64,000 nt of DNA from Kiritimatiellia bacterium (GCA_030745755.1 JASLOA010000007.1:11974-75973), one strand, 5' to 3'. Shown: positions 27,362 to 52,262, counted from the first letter of the stretch. A program made the numbers and translations. Notes: generated by a model from the sequence alone, not told the origin.

Positions 27362-28840
27362 TCACATATCCGCCGGGCTCTGAACCGAGAGCCCCGGCTT
27401 GTTCAGCACATGCGTGTAAATCATTGTCGTGGACACATCCGCATGCCCCAACAACTCCTGCACCGTACGGATATCGTAGTTTGCCATCAGCAGGTGCGTC
27501 GCAAACGAGTGGCGCAAGGCATGGCAGTTAACCTTCTTGGTAATGTCCGCCGCATCAGCCGCCTTCTTGATCGAGCGCTGCAAGTTACTCTCGTGGATGT
27601 GGTGCCGGCGTTCCACGCCACCTCGGGGATCGATCGAGAGCTTAACGGAAGGGAACACGTACTGCCAACGCCACTCCAGCCCGCCCTTGGGGTACTTCCG
27701 AGCCAGCGCATCCGGCAGAAACACCGGTCCCACACCAGCCTTCCGGTCCGCCGCAAACAGCTTACGCACACTCCCCATATGCTCCTTCAGAGGCGCAGCG
27801 TACTTCTTCGGGAGCATCGTCATCCGGTCCTTCTTGCCCTTTCCGGTCCGTACTATGAGCTGCTCGCTGTCGAAATCAACATCCTGCACGCGAAGACGGA
27901 TACACTCCATGAGGCGTAGCCCCGACCCATAGAGCAACCCCGCCATGACATAGGGTTCTCCGGCGAGATGGGCGAAGAGGCGGTCAATCTCCCCATGCGT
28001 CAACACCACCGGCAACAGCTTCGGCCGTTTCGATCGCTGAAAGTCATTCAAATCCCCAAGGGCCTTGCCGACAACAACCTTGTAGAACAGCACCAGTGCA
28101 CAGAGCGCCTGGTTCTGCGTGGACGCACCCACGTTACGTTTGTTCGCCAGGTAGGTGAGATACTCCACGATCTCCGGTTCCGCCAGGCTGCGAGGATCCC
28201 GGTACGCATGAAACGTCAAGAAACGCGTAACCCATGTCTCATAGCTGTGCTCCGTACGAATCGAATAGTTGCGACGCCGGATTTCCTCCCTCAACGTACC
28301 CAAATCCTGGCCAAACAGGTCACGGGCCTTCATGCCATCCAGCGTATCCCGAAACACCTGCTTCGCCGCATCGGCATGCAGAGCCACCGATGCATGGGCG
28401 TAGTGTTCGATCTCCGATGCAAAATGGAGGTGAGGCGACTTCCAGTCCTCCCATGGGAAGTCCTTTGCCCACGGGGTTTTGACCACCGTCACAAACAGAA
28501 TGCGCAACGCATCGACAAACTGGCTGAACTGCCAGTCCTCGAGCCGCCCGGCAGCCACCTGCTTGGACAGATAGCCCTTAATGTCCTCTGCCGTTTTATG
28601 CCCCAGTCGGACCCGCTTTGTACTTTCGATGAAATAAACCACCCGCTTCCGAGCCCACGCCACCGCCTGTGGGTTCATCCCATCCGCAGCCAGTTGACTC
28701 TCGTAGATCTCCGACGCTATCAATGCTTGGTGGCAGGAAACCGAGCCAACCGGAACGGTTGGCTCTCTTGTCGCCTCGCGTCTCGGTGAATCCTCACCGG
28801 AGAAACGATGGCTTGTTCGTGTCTTCCTGAAGAAACTCAA
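27362..28840 (-). CDS. intI: integron integrase (IntI) with long N-terminal extension
   Basis: Tyrosine recombinase boxes ALRHSFATHLL and GHADVSTTMIYTHV. The IntI-specific additional domain ALARKYPKGGLEWRWQYVFPS is present. Extended similarity to IntI1 from LREEIRRRNYSIRTEHSYETWV onward. TTG start at 28840; first in-frame ATG gives a start at 28678. Confidence 0.9.
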   Translation of the reverse strand: MSFFRKTRTSHRFSGEDSPRREATREPTVPVGSVSCHQALIASEIYESQLAADGMNPQAVAWARKRVVYFIESTKRVRLGHKTAEDIKGYLSKQVAAGRLEDWQFSQFVDALRILFVTVVKTPWAKDFPWEDWKSPHLHFASEIEHYAHASVALHADAAKQVFRDTLDGMKARDLFGQDLGTLREEIRRRNYSIRTEHSYETWVTRFLTFHAYRDPRSLAEPEIVEYLTYLANKRNVGASTQNQALCALVLFYKVVVGKALGDLNDFQRSKRPKLLPVVLTHGEIDRLFAHLAGEPYVMAGLLYGSGLRLMECIRLRVQDVDFDSEQLIVRTGKGKKDRMTMLPKKYAAPLKEHMGSVRKLFAADRKAGVGPVFLPDALARKYPKGGLEWRWQYVFPSVKLSIDPRGGVERRHHIHESNLQRSIKKAADAADITKKVNCHALRHSFATHLLMANYDIRTVQELLGHADVSTTMIYTHVLNKPGLSVQSPADM

Positions 28841-29003
28841 GACTTACGAAAAGACAGGGGTAAGTCTTGGCGTCATGACCAATCCCGAGAGTAGACAGAG
28901 GTGGGGAACCAAACCCATAGAGATCGGCTAACAACACCTTGCACACCTACAAAATGGGCCGCGCGGACGCGTCCCATGTTGAGGGTGAAGGCGGGCGTTG
29001 GCC
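28841..29003 (+). other. attI region (putative crossover G|TTGGCC at 28997/28998)
   Basis: Lies between the intI start and the first cassette. Contains GGCTAAC (28926) and GTTGGCC (28997) core-like sites and a GGACGCGTCC palindrome. Exact architecture is unresolved. Confidence 0.5.
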
Positions 29004-29018
29004 CGGAGAACAATAGCC

Positions 29019-29048
29019 TTGCGCAGTCTTTACGGTATGACGTATTAT
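29019..29048 (+). promoter_or_regulatory. cassette promoter TTGCGC-18-TATTAT upstream of the first mazEF-like cassette
   Basis: Hexamers at 29019-29024 and 29043-29048. RBS GGAGGTG at 29055, ATG at 29066. Confidence 0.45.
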
Positions 29049-29065
29049 CATACTGGAGGTGATAA

Positions 29066-29308
29066 ATGAGCACAGCGAAAATCGCAATCACAATGGAAGA
29101 GAGTCTGGTCTCACAGGTGGACCGACTTGTCTCGTCACACATCTACCCCAGCCGCAGTCGAGCCATTCAAGAAGCAGTGGCCGACAAGCTACACCGCTTG
29201 GATCGTCGCCGCTTGGCGCGCGAATGCGCCAAGCTCGACCCACAGTTTGAACAAGCGATGTCGGAAGAGGGAATGGGTTTGGAGGTAGAGGCATGGCCAG
29301 AGTACTGA
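29066..29308 (+). CDS. CopG/RHH-type antitoxin (MazE/PemI-like)
   Basis: 80 aa. N-terminal ribbon-helix-helix region [18 protein letters not shown]. Overlaps the toxin gene. Confidence 0.7.
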
Positions 29309-29655
29309 GGGGAGATATCTTCTGGGCTGACCTCAATCCAACCAGGGGACATGAGCAAGCGGGGCTGCGCCCAGTGCTCATTCTCAGCGAAGATGTATTT
29401 AACAACCGTTCTGGGACGGTCATAGCCATTGCTCTGACAAGTCAACCGCAGCGTGCGGGCTTCCCGCTGACACTTGAACTGTCGAGTCCAAGACTCCCCA
29501 AACGCTCATGGGCAAAGATCAGCCAGGTCCGCACGTTGTCGGTCCAGCGTCTCGGGAAGAAGATTGGGAAAGCGTCCTCTGATGAACTCGACCACATCAT
29601 TGAAGGACTCAATGAGCTGATCGGGGGCCAACAAAGCCCTCGACCATACCGTTGA
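29293..29655 (+). CDS. mazF: MazF/PemK-family endoribonuclease toxin
   Basis: [27 protein letters not shown]... is the typical MazF/PemK N-terminus. Confidence 0.8.
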
Positions 29656-33035: not shown

Positions 33036-33086
33036 GTGAGCAAACAAACCTTGCGCATGTGCGCACAATAGATGTACATTCGTCTC

Positions 33087-33377
33087 ATGAGATACGAGTG
33101 GAATCCCGAGAAGAATGATGCTCTCAAGCGCGAGCGCAACATCTCGTTTGAGCAGATCGTCTTTCATTTGTCGCAAGGCGACGTGTGGAAGACTGCCGAT
33201 CATCCGAATCAGGATCAGTATCCCGGGCAGAAACTGTATTTCGTGAATGTGGAAGGCTATATCCACATTGTCCCCCATGTCGTGGAGGATGAGTATGTGT
33301 TTCTGAAGACGATCATCCCCAGCCGGAAGGCAACACGGGACTTTCAGAAAGAAGGTGAGCAGAATGAAAATGGATAA
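33087..33377 (+). CDS. brnT: BrnT-family (DUF497) toxin
   Basis: MRYEWNPEKNDALKRERNISFEQ... A palindrome CGTCTCATGAGATACG spans the start. Confidence 0.75.
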   Translation: MRYEWNPEKNDALKRERNISFEQIVFHLSQGDVWKTADHPNQDQYPGQKLYFVNVEGYIHIVPHVVEDEYVFLKTIIPSRKATRDFQKEGEQNENG

Positions 33378-37353: not shown

Positions 37354-37415
37354 ATCTAACAAGAGGCTGCTCGCGTACCCTCGTATACTCGGGCCGGAGA
37401 GCCTGATCGTTGGGC
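37354..37415 (+). other. attC site (R'' ATCTAAC ... R' GTTGGGC)
   Basis: ggctGctc/gagagcc L boxes with an extrahelical G. Bounds an ORF-less ~210-bp cassette (37198-37408). Confidence 0.55.
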
Positions 37416-37439
37416 TTGAGAGAAAGGATTTGCAAATCT

Positions 37440-39092
37440 ATGCCTGGAGATATCATGCTGCTGTTGTTTGCACTGACTGTTATAGTGTGCCACTCGCAGG
37501 AAGCGGGAGCGGCAACGATTTCCGTGAAGAACTTTGGCGTAGCAGGCGATGGCACAAGTGACGACGGGCCAGCCATCCGTAAAGCGGTTGAGGCCGCGAC
37601 CAAAGGCGGCCCAGGAACAAAGCTTGTTTTCGAGAGCAAGGCCTACCGCCTTGGAGCAAACAAGGGCGGCAATGGCCAGATCAGGCTGGTCGATGTAGAC
37701 GGCCTGACCATCGACGGGAACGGCTCGACCCTACTCCTGCATCCTCAGAACGGGATGTTTGACGTCCTCAAGTGCCGGAACGTCGTCATCCGCGGATTTA
37801 CGATCGACTTCGATCCACTGCCGTTCACACAGGGCACAATCAGCAGCGTAGATGCAGGCAAAGGCTTCTTCGATCTGGAGTTCCACAAGGGATATCCCCT
37901 CCCTTTGCCGGATGAAGCAGTGAAGAAACGCTTGGGCAAAGGCGGCTGGCGCTGGGGATCGGTCATCGACCCGAAGGAACGCCATCGCCGCTGGGGAATT
38001 GCAGACCACTACTCTATCGACTCGATCAATTTGGTTGCGGGCAGAACCTATCGCATCACGGTTGCGCCCTCGGATGCCAAACAACTCACTCCTGTCCGTC
38101 CCGGTGATAGATTCTTCCTGCCATTACAGCTTACCGAGAAAGGTGAACGCGCCTTCGGCTCAAACATCACGGTCAAGGAGTCGACAGACTGCACGATTGA
38201 GGATATCACGATCTACAGCGCACGTTGCGGCATGAACTACGCTATCACCCGCAATGAAGGCCTCATCACGCTGCGTAACAACAAGATCACCTTCAAGCCG
38301 GGCAGCACCCGTATCTGTACGACCTGGAAGGACGGCATGCACGTCAAAGATAACCGCGTTGGGCCGCTAATCGAGGGGTGCTATTTCGAAGGCATGCTGG
38401 ACGATAGCATCAACATCAGCGCTAATACAGCCATGGCGACTAAGATCATCTCACCGACAGAGTTTCAACTAATGGGTCCAGCGTTCTCTGCGGGTGACGA
38501 TGTGATGGTCTTCGAACCGAAGACCGGTAAGATACGGATGACGATGGTCGTCAAAGCGACGGCGCAAGGTAGAGACCACCTCGTAACGTTGGCCGATCCA
38601 ATGGAGGGCGTGATTACAGGGCGCAAACAACGCGAGCACGTAAAGTCCACCCACTTCTACAATATGAGCTACGTCAACAACGGCTTTATCGTTCGCAATT
38701 GCACGTTCAAACCCCAACGCCGACATGCACTACTGGTCCGTTGCAGCAACGGGCTGTTTGAAGGAAATACGGTTGATGGCGTCGGCGGAGCTGCCGTGTG
38801 GATGGGCAATGAGATGGGCAGCTTCTACGAAGGACCGTTCCCCACGAACAATATAGTCCGCAATAACACCATCAACAACACACAATTGCCTGCTATCAAA
38901 ATCTACACCCGTGCAGGCGGCAAAGCGAAGCTCACACGCAACATCAAGGTTGAGGACAATACAATCACAGTGCTTCCTGAGAAGCTGGGCATCTCGGTTC
39001 TCAATGCTGCATCCGTCGAGTGTAGGGGCAACCGCATTCTTGATCAACAGGGGACGGATATTGGGGCAGCAGGCGTGATTCTTAATGATTGA
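37440..39092 (+). CDS. secreted right-handed beta-helix protein (pectate-lyase superfamily / GH28-like)
   Basis: Signal peptide MPGDIMLLLFALTVIVCHS. ISVKNFGVAGDGTSDDGPAIRKAVEAA is typical of GH28 / Pectate_lyase_3. Repetitive N-x-I/V beta-helix coils. Confidence 0.7.
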   Translation: MPGDIMLLLFALTVIVCHSQEAGAATISVKNFGVAGDGTSDDGPAIRKAVEAATKGGPGTKLVFESKAYRLGANKGGNGQIRLVDVDGLTIDGNGSTLLLHPQNGMFDVLKCRNVVIRGFTIDFDPLPFTQGTISSVDAGKGFFDLEFHKGYPLPLPDEAVKKRLGKGGWRWGSVIDPKERHRRWGIADHYSIDSINLVAGRTYRITVAPSDAKQLTPVRPGDRFFLPLQLTEKGERAFGSNITVKESTDCTIEDITIYSARCGMNYAITRNEGLITLRNNKITFKPGSTRICTTWKDGMHVKDNRVGPLIEGCYFEGMLDDSINISANTAMATKIISPTEFQLMGPAFSAGDDVMVFEPKTGKIRMTMVVKATAQGRDHLVTLADPMEGVITGRKQREHVKSTHFYNMSYVNNGFIVRNCTFKPQRRHALLVRCSNGLFEGNTVDGVGGAAVWMGNEMGSFYEGPFPTNNIVRNNTINNTQLPAIKIYTRAGGKAKLTRNIKVEDNTITVLPEKLGISVLNAASVECRGNRILDQQGTDIGAAGVILND

Positions 39093-39205: not shown

Positions 39206-39388
39206 ATGAAATCTAAAGATATAGGATTCTTTGCCATGGGAGTGGGGGCACTGGGGATTATCATTCCAATTCTAGTCCTCATTGGAGATAGTTCAAAAAT
39301 TATTCAAATCGGGATTATGATCTCAGGATCGATCATATTCGGATGTGGTTGCATTGCCGCAGTTATCGCACAGAACAAGGAACAATAA
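39206..39388 (+). CDS. small membrane protein (60 aa), hypothetical
   Basis: RBS GGAAAGGAG. Two TM helices. Confidence 0.45.
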   Translation: MKSKDIGFFAMGVGALGIIIPILVLIGDSSKIIQIGIMISGSIIFGCGCIAAVIAQNKEQ

Positions 39389-39450
39389 CTGCTATCAAAG
39401 CATTGGAGTTTACGTCGCTATAGCGCCGAAACTCAAGGTGGACGTTAGAA
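39383..39450 (+). other. attC site, family K (R'' CAATAAC ... R' GTTAGAA)
   Basis: tggagttt/aaactcaa stem. Central cgctatagcg palindrome. Confidence 0.6.
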
Positions 39451-39458
39451 TCAAGAAA

Positions 39459-40880
39459 ATGAGTACGAAGCAGAAGAACATCCTATTGATTATTTGCGAT
39501 CAACTATCTGCCCAGGCATTGGCTGCTTGGGGTAGTCCGTATGGTAGCACCCCTAATATTGATAGAATTATCGGAAACGGTGTTCGCTTTGAAACGGCGT
39601 ATACGAACTGTCCCTTATGCCAACCTGCCCGAGCATCACTTTGGACTGGTCTATATCCGCACCAGACAGGAGTATTGTCTAATGGTCGTTTACATCCTGT
39701 TCCTGAGGTCCCGGATTCGGTTGCAACGCTAGGGTCAGTCTTTTCTAAGGCCGGATATAGGACGGTTCATTTTGGGAAGCAACATGATGCCGGGAGCCTT
39801 CGCGGATTTGAGCGGTTTCCAATTGAAGGGAAGGAAATAGAAGATGTAGCTCCGTCATGGCCTGTGAACTACGACACGCGACAGGATCGCAATACCCGCG
39901 AGCAAATGATAGACTTCTTGAGTAGCTATGCTGACCCACGACCTTATCTGGCCGTCGCAGACCTCAATAATCCACATGACATTTGCAGCTGGATTGGGGA
40001 ATTCCAAGGCAGGAAAGAACTGATAAGTCCGGATTGTGCTCTCCCGCCACTGCCTGACAATCTATATCGTGACGAAGGGCAGTTCGAGAAGCTGCCCTTG
40101 CCGATTCAGTACATTTGTTGTGCTCATAACCGCCAAGCCCAAATGGCCGAATGGGATGAGACGAGAATCCGTCACTACTTGTGTGCATATCATCATTACA
40201 TAAGCAGAGTGGATACTGAGATAGGCAAGATTCTGGCAACTCTGGAAGGTAGAAGTGATGCCGAAGACACCTTGATTGTGTTCACGGCTGACCATGGTGA
40301 CTCAATGTGTGGTAGATGGATGGGTACAAAGCACACGAGCTTCTATGATGAAACCACCAAAATTCCTCTAGTATTCGCAGGTCCCGGAATCGAAGGAGAA
40401 AAGGGACGCGCTATCAGCGGCTTAACGTCTCTCATCGATCTATTTCCCACACTTTGTGACTATGCCGGCATAGACATTCCCTCTACGGTTGCCGGCCGCT
40501 CCCTAATGCCTTGGGTGGTCGATCACAAGGAGAAGCCGCCTCGTACATATGTAGTCAGCCAATGGCATACAGAATGGGGATTCACTATCGAACCAGGAAG
40601 AATGATTCGAACGAACAGATACAAATATACGCATTACCTCGAAGGTAATGGCGAAGAACTGTATGACCTTATCGATGACCCCGGAGAATTGAAAACCCTT
40701 GTAGATCATCGTGGGTTCCACAAAGTATTGAAAGAACATCGTGCTATCCTGAAAGAACATACAGAAATAGCAAATGACCCCTATTTCTCTCTTGAATGGA
40801 ATGCGGATGAACGCTGGAGGTGCCATAAGCCAGGATATCGCAATCATCGTGGTGCTGCGGCGCCGGCAAGCGGCAATTGA
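39459..40880 (+). CDS. type I sulfatase (formylglycine-dependent)
   Basis: NILLIICDQL..., FGly motif CQPARASLWTG (C-x-P-x-R), and a C-terminal sulfatase domain. Confidence 0.85.
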   Translation: MSTKQKNILLIICDQLSAQALAAWGSPYGSTPNIDRIIGNGVRFETAYTNCPLCQPARASLWTGLYPHQTGVLSNGRLHPVPEVPDSVATLGSVFSKAGYRTVHFGKQHDAGSLRGFERFPIEGKEIEDVAPSWPVNYDTRQDRNTREQMIDFLSSYADPRPYLAVADLNNPHDICSWIGEFQGRKELISPDCALPPLPDNLYRDEGQFEKLPLPIQYICCAHNRQAQMAEWDETRIRHYLCAYHHYISRVDTEIGKILATLEGRSDAEDTLIVFTADHGDSMCGRWMGTKHTSFYDETTKIPLVFAGPGIEGEKGRAISGLTSLIDLFPTLCDYAGIDIPSTVAGRSLMPWVVDHKEKPPRTYVVSQWHTEWGFTIEPGRMIRTNRYKYTHYLEGNGEELYDLIDDPGELKTLVDHRGFHKVLKEHRAILKEHTEIANDPYFSLEWNADERWRCHKPGYRNHRGAAAPASGN

Positions 40881-42131: not shown

Positions 42132-42195
42132 GATCGCTGACAAGGTGTTGGATGCTACGACGCTATAGCGCCGAGCATCATCACGGACGTTGGGC
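42117..42195 (+). other. attC site, family K (R'' GCGCAAC ... R' GTTGGGC)
   Basis: gatgct/agcatc stem. cgacgctatagcgccg core, as in 39383-39450. Confidence 0.55.
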
Positions 42196-42211
42196 TGTAA
42201 AAGGATATAGA

Positions 42212-43927
42212 ATGCAAGGCATGTTCAAGATTCTGCTATTATCTCTCACACTCCCATTATTCATCAATTCGCATTCACGGGCAGAGGGTTCGGAAGCGAT
42301 ACAATTGGGACCAGACTACAAGCCGTGCGGCGAGTTGACTAAATTCTGGCGTGGCAAACCTGTCATCGGGCGCTGGATGGGCCAGGGATTTCTGGCTGAT
42401 GCGCCCACCTTCTACAACCAATCTTCTTTTCCCTACAAGAAGCGAGGTCACAAACAAGAAGTCAAGATGGCGGACTTCCTGAGCACGCCTCGGCTCCTCG
42501 GCGGCTGGCATCCCGACAAAGGCGGCAAAGGCGAACTCGAAAAACACAAGCACGTCGCCGACGCTGACCTCGTGTATCGAAAAAAGGATGGCTCCCTCGG
42601 GTATCGCTGGGAACTGCTGGACCTGCGTCTGAGTCGATTCATCAATGCGGGATACACCGACCTGACGCTGGTGCTGGATCAAATCCCCTATTGCCTAGCC
42701 AGGAAGCATCATTTGGAAACCTACGGCCAAGCCATCCCACCCGATGATCTGAAAGAGTGGTACGTCTTCATCCGTGATCTCTGCAAAGAATTGAAACGCC
42801 GCTACAGCACGAAGACTGCCAGCGGCTTCCGCTTCCGCCTCGGCACCGAACTCGGCAGCGGCGAACGCATCGCCCTGACGCAGGAACAACTGCACGAGAT
42901 GTACGCCCTCACACACAAGGCCATCAAGGAAGTCCTGCCCGACGCCAAGCTCGGCCCGTGGAACGAAGCGGGTTTCAAAGATAAGCAGGAACGCGCTCCG
43001 CTGAAAGTGCTGGCACTGGCCAAATATGCCAAGGCGAACAAGCTGGCCTTTGATTTCGCTAGCGTCTCGTCCTACTCCATCCCGAAAGTACGCGGCAGCA
43101 GAATCCTCGCGACCAACCCCCAGCAGAAGGCCGAGGGCGATGCCAAGTATTTCACCTTGCTCCGCGAAGTCTTCCCCGGTATCCCGGCCGAGTATCACGA
43201 GTTCGGCATTCTCAACTCGCAATACGGCGTCGTCACCAGTGAACCCGGTTCGCGCGGCGGTGCGTATCGGGCGCATTACCTGCTAGCCGCGCTTGAAAAC
43301 AGGTCTCTCGACCGCTTGTATCACTGGTCAGTCTTTGACTTCATCGGCACCGACAGAAAGCTCGGCCCGATCCAGTTGCTCCGCTCCAATGGCTGGCTCT
43401 ATTCCATCCTGGAGCATGCTGCCGAAGGCAAGCTGTATGTCCTGAAGGGCAATACCGCGGCAGGGAACACTCTCTACAAATCCGCTCTCATTACCTGCCC
43501 CAAGAGGAGCTTCCTGATCGTCTCGGCGTATACGCTGGATCGCCGCAAGCAAGGCAAGCCAACGATCACGATCACCCTTCCCCAAAGCATCGTCCAAAAC
43601 AAGCCGCCGGGTAAAGGTGTAGTTGAGTATGTGGCATTGACGCCGGAGACGGACATCTACCGAACCGTCAAAGCGGACCTCGCGAAGGCAAGCAACCTCA
43701 ATCCCGAATTCGCCAAGCATCCTGATCTCGTCGCCCCGGTGAAGAGCATGGCGACCAAGTTCGCTGGTGCGCGCAAAATGATCACGGCCAACTACTCGGC
43801 CTACCAAAACCAGATGGAGAAGTCTCTCACCCTCAAGCCTTTCGGGCCCAAGATGAAGACGGACGAGATGACGCTATCCCTAACCTTCCCCTTCCCGACG
43901 GATTCGGTGGTTGTTTTTGTCTGGTGA
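42212..43927 (+). CDS. secreted TIM-barrel glycoside-hydrolase-like protein (GH39/GH30-like), hypothetical
   Basis: Signal peptide MQGMFKILLLSLTLPLFINSHS. LGPWNEAGF resembles the GH39 WNEP acid/base motif. 571 aa. Confidence 0.5.
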   Translation: MQGMFKILLLSLTLPLFINSHSRAEGSEAIQLGPDYKPCGELTKFWRGKPVIGRWMGQGFLADAPTFYNQSSFPYKKRGHKQEVKMADFLSTPRLLGGWHPDKGGKGELEKHKHVADADLVYRKKDGSLGYRWELLDLRLSRFINAGYTDLTLVLDQIPYCLARKHHLETYGQAIPPDDLKEWYVFIRDLCKELKRRYSTKTASGFRFRLGTELGSGERIALTQEQLHEMYALTHKAIKEVLPDAKLGPWNEAGFKDKQERAPLKVLALAKYAKANKLAFDFASVSSYSIPKVRGSRILATNPQQKAEGDAKYFTLLREVFPGIPAEYHEFGILNSQYGVVTSEPGSRGGAYRAHYLLAALENRSLDRLYHWSVFDFIGTDRKLGPIQLLRSNGWLYSILEHAAEGKLYVLKGNTAAGNTLYKSALITCPKRSFLIVSAYTLDRRKQGKPTITITLPQSIVQNKPPGKGVVEYVALTPETDIYRTVKADLAKASNLNPEFAKHPDLVAPVKSMATKFAGARKMITANYSAYQNQMEKSLTLKPFGPKMKTDEMTLSLTFPFPTDSVVVFVW

Positions 43928-44031: not shown

Positions 44032-45456
44032 ATGAGTAAGCCAAACATTGTCTACGTAATTGCTGACCAATTGCGCCGGCAATCTTGCGGATATGCCGGT
44101 GATGCGCTGGCAAGGACTCCGAATATTGATCGGTTAGCGGATGAGGGTATGAGTTTTGATAACGCAGTGGTATCGATGCCCGTTTGCAGTGCCTATCGCG
44201 CTTCGCTGTTCACGGGGAAGTATACGACGTCGACAGGCATGGTCATCAACGAGATACGACTAAATCCGGATCACCACCCGCGTTGCCTGGCGCATTGCCT
44301 GGCCGACGCAGACTACGAGCTTGCATATCTCGGCAAGTGGCATCTTTGGGCGAACCAGCTGGGGAATCACGAGGATCCCAAGAACTCGTTCGTGCCACGC
44401 GGTCCACACCGGCTGGGTTTTGACGGCTACTGGGCGGCTTATAATTTCCATCACGACTACTATGGTGAACATGCGTATTACCATGAAGAGAAACCGGAGA
44501 AGATACGCTTCCCGGAAGGGACGTACGAGCCGGACGGCCAGACAGATATGGCGATCGATTACATAAAGGCTCACGTCAATGACGACAGGCCGTTTGCTCT
44601 CATGCTGTCGCTTGGAACGCCGCATGACCCATGGGTGAAGGACAATGTACCTAAGGAATACTACGCCATGTTCGAGAATGTGAAGTTTGAAGTTCCACCG
44701 AACTGGCGACAGGAAAGCGACGCACCTTACGGCGATGGCTGGTCAGACATGGAGAAGACGCCAGAGATGCTGGACGAGTGGATGCGCGTGTACTATGCGA
44801 TGACTGCGAATCTGGACTGGAACATCGGCCGACTGCAGAGCGCAATCCGCGACGCAGGCATTGAGGATAACACGATCCTTGTCTTCACCTCGGACCACGG
44901 TGAATGCTTCGGCGCGCATGGGAGGATGAAGAAGAACATTTTCTATGAAGAAGCTGCGCGTGTACCCATGCTCATCAAGTGGCCTGCCGCGATCCCTGCG
45001 GGGCACAAGAGCGATGCCTGTCTCAGTAATGTCGACATCATGCCAACGCTATTGGGATTGGTCGGGGCGGATATCCCCGACGAGGTCGAAGGTATGGACC
45101 TGAGCCATTGCGCACGAGGCGAATCGGGCCCGGAACCGGAATTTGCATTTCTCCAGAATACCGGTGCGTGTGCGGCCTGGGAAGACGGTCATGAATGGCG
45201 AGCGATCCGAACGAAGCAATACACCTACGCCGTCTACAAGCTCGATGGTAAAGAACTGCTCTTCGACAATATCGCCGACCCCTATCAGATGGTTAACCTG
45301 TTGGACCAGGACGTTACCGACCTCGGACCTGAACTGAGCCGGAAGCTGGCGGCCAAGATGGCAGAACTGAAAGACGGTTTCGAAGTATCTTCATTCTACC
45401 GAGATAGCTGGGTGTCCAAGGATCGCCTGATCTTGAGGACTGCAAAGAATTCCTGA
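44032..45456 (+). CDS. type I sulfatase
   Basis: NIVYVIADQLR..., FGly motif CSAYRASLFTG, FTSDHGE, and a C-terminal domain. Confidence 0.85.
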   Translation: MSKPNIVYVIADQLRRQSCGYAGDALARTPNIDRLADEGMSFDNAVVSMPVCSAYRASLFTGKYTTSTGMVINEIRLNPDHHPRCLAHCLADADYELAYLGKWHLWANQLGNHEDPKNSFVPRGPHRLGFDGYWAAYNFHHDYYGEHAYYHEEKPEKIRFPEGTYEPDGQTDMAIDYIKAHVNDDRPFALMLSLGTPHDPWVKDNVPKEYYAMFENVKFEVPPNWRQESDAPYGDGWSDMEKTPEMLDEWMRVYYAMTANLDWNIGRLQSAIRDAGIEDNTILVFTSDHGECFGAHGRMKKNIFYEEAARVPMLIKWPAAIPAGHKSDACLSNVDIMPTLLGLVGADIPDEVEGMDLSHCARGESGPEPEFAFLQNTGACAAWEDGHEWRAIRTKQYTYAVYKLDGKELLFDNIADPYQMVNLLDQDVTDLGPELSRKLAAKMAELKDGFEVSSFYRDSWVSKDRLILRTAKNS

Positions 45457-51336: not shown

Positions 51337-51342
51337 GACACC

Positions 51343-51624
51343 ATGAAGTTTGAGTGGGATGACCAGAAGAATGAGGCAAACATTCGCAAGCACGGCATCG
51401 ACTTTGCCGATGTTGTCGAGATGTTCGTTCATCCGATGATTACTCATCTCGACACTCGCCGCGACTACGGCGCGGACCGATGGATCGGCATCGGCCTATT
51501 GAGAAACATCGTGGCTGTAACCGTCTATATCGAATGGGAAGACGAAGAGACGATCCGAATCATCTCAGCCCGCAAGGCAAAACGATATGAAAGCGAAGAA
51601 TACCATACGAGAGTCACGCACTGA
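51343..51624 (+). CDS. brnT: BrnT-family toxin
   Basis: MKFEWDDQKNEANIRKHGIDFADV... Confidence 0.75.
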   Translation: MKFEWDDQKNEANIRKHGIDFADVVEMFVHPMITHLDTRRDYGADRWIGIGLLRNIVAVTVYIEWEDEETIRIISARKAKRYESEEYHTRVTH

Positions 51625-51992: not shown

Positions 51993-52001
51993 AACAACAC
52001 C

Positions 52002-52262
52002 ATGAAGTTCGAGTTTGATCCCGAGAAGAGCGAAGCGAACAAGACCAAGCATGGCATCGACTTTGTCGAAGGACAGGCGCTGTGGGAGGATCCAGATCGC
52101 CTCCAACTGCCTGCACGCACACAAGGCGAGCCACGCCTGATGCTGATCGGACGCATCGGTGACAGGCATTGGTCGGCGATCTTCACGATTCGGGAAGACA
52201 GAACCCGGATCATTTCGATCCGGCGTTCTCGGACAAAGGAGGTAGAACAGTATGAAGACTGA
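52002..52262 (+). CDS. brnT: BrnT-family toxin
   Basis: MKFEFDPEKSEANKTKHGIDFVEGQ... Confidence 0.75.
   Translation: MKFEFDPEKSEANKTKHGIDFVEGQALWEDPDRLQLPARTQGEPRLMLIGRIGDRHWSAIFTIREDRTRIISIRRSRTKEVEQYED

Follow-up and report, generated by a model that had tools for sequence, protein, structure and literature searches.

A long-form integron integrase from Kiritimatiellia with a predicted second core-binding-type domain at its N-terminus

Introduction

To our knowledge, the mechanistic understanding of integron recombination derives entirely from short integrases, namely IntI1 and VchIntIA. The integrase gene examined here lies on the minus strand of a 64,000-nucleotide stretch of DNA from a Kiritimatiellia bacterium (GCA_030745755.1 JASLOA010000007.1:11974-75973; the whole stretch is referred to as the window, and positions are counted from its first letter). 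The original prediction, made from the sequence alone, saw in this gene an integron integrase with an N-terminal extension resembling a second SAM-like domain. The locus thereby raises the question of what the extra segment is, whether it is made as a part of the enzyme, and what it may contribute to recombination.

Integrases of greater length are on record. Nemergut et al. (2008; BMC Genomics 9:261, PMC2426708) reported IntIs that are "~120 aa longer", from "gene fusion", and that constitute their "clade 15" from Deltaproteobacteria; the added segment was given neither an identity nor a fold there, whereas it is assigned here to a core-binding (CB)-type domain. Smyshlyaev et al., who classified the tyrosine recombinases, count IntI among the "arm-less" ones. 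Our literature searches returned no paper that identifies the added IntI segment as a CB-type domain or that tests its function.

Results

An intact integron integrase of the long class

The gene and its parts are given below. Residue numbers count from the TTG at 28840 unless stated otherwise; those of the VchIntIA alignment count from the TTG at 28723.

27362-28840, minus strand: longest open reading frame, 492 codons with a TTG start; codons 1-39 (28724-28840) are probably non-coding
27362-28723, minus strand: intI coding sequence backed by homology (alignment with the starts of relatives), TTG start, 453 aa plus stop
28397-28723, minus strand: extra domain (EXT), ~110 aa, four main helices and a Trp-rich helical tail, PWAxxFPWxxWKxPHL
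28295-28396, minus strand: linker; residues ~149-163 of variable length and low confidence, residues ~164-182 a helix that runs into CB helix 1
28055-28294, minus strand: canonical CB domain (Pfam Phage_int_SAM_4, PF13495, residues 183-262, 96.5 bits; VchIntIA alignment)
27404-28006, minus strand: catalytic domain (CAT), including the IntI-specific insertion (Pfam Phage_integrase, residues 279-479)

The "integron integrase" model TIGR02249 scored 431 bits against a cutoff of 265, with residues 182-491 spanning model positions 4-313 of 315, and the IntI1-type model NF011946 aligned residues 180-491 to its positions 17-328. Residues 4-317 of VchIntIA (PDB 2a3v) aligned to residues 139-451 (279 bits, E 6e-82). 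Similarity to canonical IntI begins at residue ~182, with LREEIRRRNYS, which is where the similarity to IntI1 had been predicted to begin: TIGR02249, NF011946 and SAM_4 all start at residues 180-183. Residues R309, K334/K337, H440, R443, H466 and Y475 are invariant in an 18-sequence alignment, and we take them to be the tyrosine-recombinase catalytic set R-K-H-R-H/W-Y. The IntI-specific insertion (the I2 helix region) is present and the VchIntIA alignment is unbroken there, with VchIntIA ALKEKYPNAPYEFRWHYLFPS...DPESDVMRRHH paired to ALARKYPKGGLEWRWQYVFPS...DPRGGVERRHH of the window protein; in Xer-like loci, the CAT model is split at the place of this insertion. Judged by these profile and alignment matches, the gene is an intact integron integrase of the "long" class. 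The corresponding NCBI protein (P0003; 438 aa, 100% identical) carries the name "integron integrase [Kiritimatiellia bacterium]".

The window protein has the CB and CAT domains, the IntI insertion and the catalytic residues in common with IntI1 (337 aa) and VchIntIA/IntI4 (320 aa, 2a3v), and all of them adjoin an attC cassette array. The characterised IntIs lack its ~125-135 extra N-terminal residues, comprising the second CB-like domain and the linker. Counted from TTG 28723, it is longer than VchIntIA by ~135 aa and longer than IntI1 by ~124 aa. The predicted extension is indeed there; its size, estimated at ~100-170 aa, is corrected to a module of ~110 aa with a linker, ~124-135 aa in total.

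The extra domain resembles core-binding domains at the level of profiles and predicted structure

Pfam SAM_4 has a second stretch of similarity in the protein, in which residues 69-125 correspond to profile positions 28-84 (16.1-16.7 bits, E 0.01-0.015). We built an hhalign profile of EXT from a 115-sequence alignment and compared it with CB domains of three origins. The match was 91.3% (E 9e-7) to the CB of the same long-form proteins, 94.6% (E 7e-8) to that of short IntIs and 97.2% (E 3e-11) to that of Xer-like recombinases. Each comparison extended over 77-80 columns in end-to-end register, that with the long-form CB without a gap over 77, and the aligned part of EXT corresponds to residues 49-125 (28466-28696). 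The controls gave 0.4% (E 0.14) for EXT against CAT and 1.8% for the canonical CB against CAT. In GTDB genomes, an HMM of EXT only cross-matched the canonical CB of dozens of unrelated short IntI or Xer-like genes, with E down to 7e-8.

The AlphaFold2 model of EXT (pLDDT 85.6, pTM 0.73) has the four helices of the CB fold. Helices 2-16, 21-37, 48-61 and 66-84 of this model mirror CB helices 135-153, 158-174, 185-197 and 203-221 of the full-length model, and the predicted EXT is all-helical, with zero strands in DSSP. The best Foldseek match of the EXT model was VchIntIA (prob 0.99). The regulatory recombinase-like CB proteins SPbeta MrpR and phi3T SroF were among the structural neighbors, and arm-binding domains were absent from the fold matches. 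The second SAM-like domain is thus borne out by four independent lines that agree: the SAM_4 stretch, hhalign, the cross-matches of the EXT HMM and the AlphaFold2 model. Profile comparison (CB-domain match of 91-97%) and structure prediction (a CB-type helix pattern) also uphold the further claim that the segment AVAWARKRVVYFIES...FVDALRILF repeats the CB domain that follows it. This repeat is visible only at the level of profiles and structure, since pairwise BLASTP of EXT against the canonical CB region found nothing significant (E 0.38).

It is conceivable that IntI was fused to a helical bundle of other ancestry and that the CB likeness of EXT is convergent or an artefact of modeling. The BLASTP result would fit this account, as would the identity to CB of ~13% and the Pfam SAM_4 (PF13495) score of ~16 bits, which is below the gathering threshold of 27. 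The Foldseek E-values are non-significant (at least 0.58), and Bcl-2-like and globin bundles are also among the fold matches of EXT. The only PDB sequence match of the EXT profile, the CB domain of lambda Int, was likewise not significant (E 0.09). Next to the hhalign values, their CAT controls and the helix-by-helix correspondence, we regard an unrelated bundle as highly improbable. By the profiles and the predicted model, EXT is an old, strongly diverged homologue (paralogue) of the tyrosine-recombinase CB (SAM-like) domain.

The two domains appear to be flexibly joined. The linker has a pLDDT of 54-62 and differs in length among homologues, with insertions, and the full-length model has a pTM of 0.60 despite confident individual domains. 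The low-confidence linker of variable length and this pTM suggest that EXT is a tethered module.

The start codon and the atypical N-terminus of the window copy

Three start calls exist for this one gene: ATG 28678 (NCBI), TTG 28723 (homology) and TTG 28840 (longest open reading frame). In the nucleotide alignment, TTG 28723 aligns exactly with the ATG or GTG starts of four related loci (L083, L001, L002 and L085). A start at 28840 is unsupported, because the similarity to relatives stops upstream of 28723, and none of them has anything that corresponds to residues 1-39. The start of the original prediction, TTG 28840, is merely that of the longest open reading frame, while its first ATG, at 28678 (residue 55), is correctly placed. 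P0003 begins at this ATG (M55), a start that would remove helix 1 of the extra domain. Translation of the window copy most likely begins at TTG 28723 or ATG 28678, and not at 28840, as judged from the alignment.

The same alignment shows the N-terminus of the window copy to be atypical among its relatives. It has TTG where the relatives have ATG or GTG, the GGAG/GAGG-type SD-like motif of the relatives is absent at the aligned place, and an in-frame deletion of 9 nt has taken away the near-invariant FW of helix 1. In view of these three features, the extra domain of this particular copy may be impaired or truncated at its N-terminus.

The loss of the ATG, of the SD-like motif and of three 5' codons would also suit a different account, in which the extension lies outside the functional enzyme. 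Translation would then start internally, near the canonical N-terminus (for example at ATG 28333, M170), and what lies upstream in frame would be a remnant that is untranslated or in decay, or else a small gene of its own. M170 sits about where IntI1 and VchIntIA begin, but it is kept only among the closest relatives. The distribution of the extension bears further on this account.

The extension is in frame across a broad clade and under constraint

A full-length homologue search gave thousands of strong matches. The best 120 of them, which we examined, are 49-84% identical and mostly 455-485 aa long, with ~91% query cover from residue ~40 onward. The EXT HMM detected the extension, in frame, in all 120 of these best-listed homologues. 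Their hosts include Kiritimatiellia, Lentisphaerales, Verrucomicrobiota, Deferrisoma, Competibacteraceae and other Gammaproteobacteria, such that the comparison with IntI diversity finds the extension conserved among the best-listed relatives across several phyla. An exhaustive HMMER search of 1.84 billion representatives returned 441 clusters that carry EXT at E<=1e-3; within them, the match is essentially always N-terminal, and the sole architecture is EXT-CB-CAT or fragments thereof. EXT fragments also occur in Desulfobacter/Desulfobacterales. A word-indexed search with the extension alone gave 2 matches, and its profile version 39, nearly all of them short fragments. We attribute these low numbers to an artefact of sensitivity and ranking, because the full-length search yields at least 120 long homologues. 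A scan of GTDB genomes had at least 3 long forms and at least ~50 short forms among the matches listed, counts that are not an estimate of prevalence.

Pairwise dN/dS against four related loci gave ω of ~0.06-0.14 for EXT (codons 55-141) and ~0.05 for CB+CAT; all of these values are approximate because dS is saturated. By this codon comparison, EXT is under purifying selection, with ω about 0.1. The in-frame extension in 120/120 best-listed homologues, the 441 clusters and the ω values of ~0.06-0.14 together argue that the extension is translated and functional.

Several loci depart from the common architecture. On L002, a 506-bp metagenomic contig, an extension of 72% identity is followed at 464-466 by an in-frame TAG, where the window has AGG (R184), and the integrase codons EEIRRRNYSIRTE carry on in frame past it. 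This TAG could mark a pseudogene or an arrangement in two pieces, or it could come from a sequencing error. L001 has EXT alone, as an ORF of 143 aa (607-1038; 70% identical, ω ~0.09 against L083). The whole CB-catalytic part is missing there and comEC is next, on the opposite strand; the ORF is either the remnant of a recent deletion or a retained stand-alone domain. Many EXT-only ORFs are found in databases, one of them on a 5.3-Mb contig (P0298).

For an internal start, one may cite the TAG of L002, which falls exactly at the junction, the lone 143-aa extension of L001 and the many EXT-only fragments, as well as the treatment of long forms under "pseudogenes" by Nemergut et al. (2008; PMC2426708). 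The lone TAG stands on a 506-bp metagenomic contig and is maybe a pseudogene or sequencing error, and most EXT-only matches have the look of pieces cut off at contig ends or of remnants left by a frameshift. The extension is moreover continuous and in frame in the 120 best-listed homologues across phyla, with invariant residues and ω ~0.1. We therefore consider an extension outside the functional enzyme very unlikely. The TAG of L002 might suggest programmed read-through or a gene of its own upstream; as a general explanation we rejected both, the frame being open in all other homologues.

We built a neighbor-joining tree on the shared CB+CAT region only, with 42 long forms, 49 short IntIs and 18 Xer-like sequences as outgroups. 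All 42 long forms fell into one clade nested among the short IntIs, and 42 of the 60 bootstrap replicates (70%) returned this monophyly, a moderate support. L051, a true short form with stops upstream in all frames, joined the long clade in one analysis; either it has lost the extension secondarily or its placement is noise. EXT resembles generic Xer-like CBs in hhalign at least as well as the CB of IntI itself, and an internal duplication and a fusion are for that reason not distinguished. From these sequence comparisons, the extension is not peculiar to the window genome, and it is a hallmark of a large, under-described IntI clade.

Conserved features of the extra domain and its possible roles

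The 18-sequence alignment defines a conserved EXT pattern, FWxxY...WYVKRAExFI...EDVxxYL...DWQ(F/Y)xQxVDALRILF...PWAxxFPWxxWKEPHL, in which Y90, W103, Q107, W124, W130 and W133 are invariant. The conserved residues are mostly aromatic, and an acidic residue usually stands before the WQxxQ motif of helix 4. The CB domains of Xer-type recombinases (XerA 4a8e/5hxy, XerD 1a0p; PF13495/PF02899) have the motifs YSxRTE and STQNQ, whereas EXT is without both and keeps one Q. EXT further differs from the Xer-type CB in its distinctive Trp-rich C-terminal tail, in its score under the Pfam threshold, and in that it precedes another CB, while the Xer-type CB stands directly before the catalytic domain. In the hhalign register, EXT reads G-M-N-P-Q-A-V and G-R-L-E-D-W-Q-F-S-Q at the positions of the CB motifs. 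Neither YSxRTE, nor the Arg before helix 4 (R235), nor the S/T of STQNQ (T241) is kept at the aligned positions; only Q107, aligned to Q244, remains.

The absence of the IntI/Xer DNA-contact residues and the acidic entry to helix 4 weaken the case for DNA binding of the canonical CB type by EXT. EXT may have kept the CB-like fold but lost DNA binding, and would then serve a protein-protein or regulatory role, such as autoinhibition, control of multimerisation or the docking of a host factor. In favor of such a role are the loss of these motifs, the conserved Trp, Tyr and Phe together with QxxQ, the acidic helix-4 entry, and the presence of MrpR and SroF among the structural neighbors. Against it, EXT is as basic as a bona fide CB (net charge +2.0 and pI 8.4, compared with +1.4 and pI 8.1 for the canonical CB), a charge plausibly compatible with DNA binding. 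The aromatics lie in segments of high pLDDT and, in the predicted model, may simply form the core of the domain and not its surface; no partner is known. We judge a role without DNA binding somewhat unlikely. It would be a sub-case of a tethered module and does not contradict it.

The cassette array and the region upstream of intI

28926-61828, plus strand: cassette array with ~30 attC-like sites in several repeat families (at least 4), from a relaxed attC scan and repeat families
28926-29003, plus strand: first attC-like hairpin, 78 nt, GGCTAAC...GTTGGCC, predicted dG -38.7 kcal/mol
28743-28765, no strand assigned: perfect palindrome with 10-bp arms, GAGCCAACCG-GAA-CGGTTGGCTC, 20-42 nt upstream of TTG 28723

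The array extends over more than 30 kb and consists mostly of short plus-strand ORFs between imperfect-palindrome repeats with ...AAC / GTT... ends. Imperfect palindromes with such AAC and GTT ends are typical of attC sites. A strict attC regular expression missed most sites, and the relaxed scan also marks false positives inside housekeeping genes. The first attC-like hairpin is ~200 nt upstream of the intI start, and housekeeping-type genes lie on the side of intI opposite the array. Gene order and repeats identify the locus as a large and complete integron on the chromosome of a Kiritimatiellia bacterium.

Among the products of the array genes are MazF and BrnT toxins, an ADP-ribosylglycohydrolase, an ion-channel protein, two sulfatases, a GH39-like protein and a beta-helix protein. 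Some cassettes are unusually large, with sulfatases at 39345-40880 and 44032-45456, a GH39-like hydrolase at 42152-43927 and a beta-helix protein at 37410-39092. Polysaccharide degradation is a function typical of Kiritimatiellia, and its genes have apparently been mobilised here as integron cassettes. Toxin-antitoxin cassettes are at 29066-29655, 33082-33154, 51338-51624 and 51997-52069. In the cassette nearest intI, an 80-aa ORF without a Pfam match overlaps a MazF/PemK toxin gene, and three or more paralogous genes for BrnT-type toxins (repeat family D7) are spread across the array.

The perfect palindrome falls in the spurious 5' part of the 492-codon ORF and holds AAC/GTT core-like triplets; by its sequence, it could be an attI-related or regulatory element or hairpin. 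An inverted repeat, AAGACTTAC-N12-GTAAGTCTT, is located at 28839-28868, right at TTG 28840. An Rfam scan of the window found nothing.

In an exploratory comparison, made without a control set, several long-form loci had 2-3 direct repeats ~100-260 nt upstream of intI; those of three loci are given here.

L083 89-192 and L001 346-477: direct repeat GCAGTCTAAAYCGG, two or three copies with a conserved 90-nt spacing
L008 1715-1815: 26-nt direct repeat, three copies

These repeats are candidate integrase-binding sites and are offered as a lead only. Direct repeats are absent from the attI region of the window and from the upstream region of L085. The window has 22 copies of the motif GCGCAGTCT where 21 are expected, which is no enrichment, and upstream of the window intI the motif occurs as a single inverted copy, at 29021. 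Accessory sites are thus without support in the window locus, where GCGCAGTCT is unenriched and the attI region has no direct repeats.

Discussion

That a long class of IntIs exists has been known since 2008; what our profile comparisons and predicted models add, and support, is the identity of EXT as a CB-type domain. The ~120 additional residues of Nemergut et al. (2008) and the ~124 aa by which the window protein exceeds IntI1 are compatible, as are the taxa, although the two clades are likened by size and taxa and not residue by residue. The single clade of our neighbor-joining tree is consistent with theirs, and it reaches the PVC superphylum and Gammaproteobacteria, beyond their Deltaproteobacteria.

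We consider it likely that the window intI belongs to a long-form clade of architecture CB'-linker-CB-CAT, in which CB' (EXT) is a diverged CB homologue translated with the enzyme. CB' would have entered this clade early and a single time, through duplication of CB or else through fusion with the CB of a Xer-like recombinase. It would be translated as part of the integrase, and a flexible linker of variable length would tether it to the canonical CB. With respect to function, we tentatively propose, at somewhat less than an even chance, that CB' is an accessory module that makes extra contacts with DNA (sites in or near attI, or the folded attC) or contacts between subunits within the synapse.

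The arm-binding domain of lambda Int binds accessory "arm" sites. Integrases of lambda-type phages and ICEs, as well as long IntIs, have an extra N-terminal module joined by a flexible linker to CB-CAT. This likeness is a functional analogy only: the lambda arm-binding domain is a small domain of beta-sheet and helix, whereas EXT is all-helical and of unrelated fold, and its model has no beta-sheet of the kind that defines the lambda-type arm-binding fold. That long IntIs independently evolved an "arm-like" architecture, with CB' reading accessory DNA and thereby setting site choice, directionality or activity, is in our estimation unlikely. If so, the targets of CB' would be repeats flanking attI or features of the folded attC, in large sedentary chromosomal integrons, and the direct repeats upstream of intI in L083, L001, L008 and L003 would be its binding sites.

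For annotation, gene callers shorten or over-extend the long intI, as seen with the NCBI start at M55 and the longest ORF at 28840, and long-form intI genes are probably often mis-started in public annotations. A dedicated EXT profile would improve annotation, since Pfam misses the domain.

For the biology of the family, the sequence evidence indicates that a large and phylogenetically diverse clade of integrases, which serve big chromosomal integrons in the environment, carries an extra domain of the recombinase DNA-clamp type, a homologue of CB. The "arm-like" reading, if true, would mean a mode of integron recombination unlike the IntI1/VchIntIA paradigm. If CB' contributes contacts to DNA or within the synapse, the long IntIs would be a natural case of domain duplication that remodels a tyrosine recombinase, and the views of attI recognition and cassette dynamics in these phyla would change.
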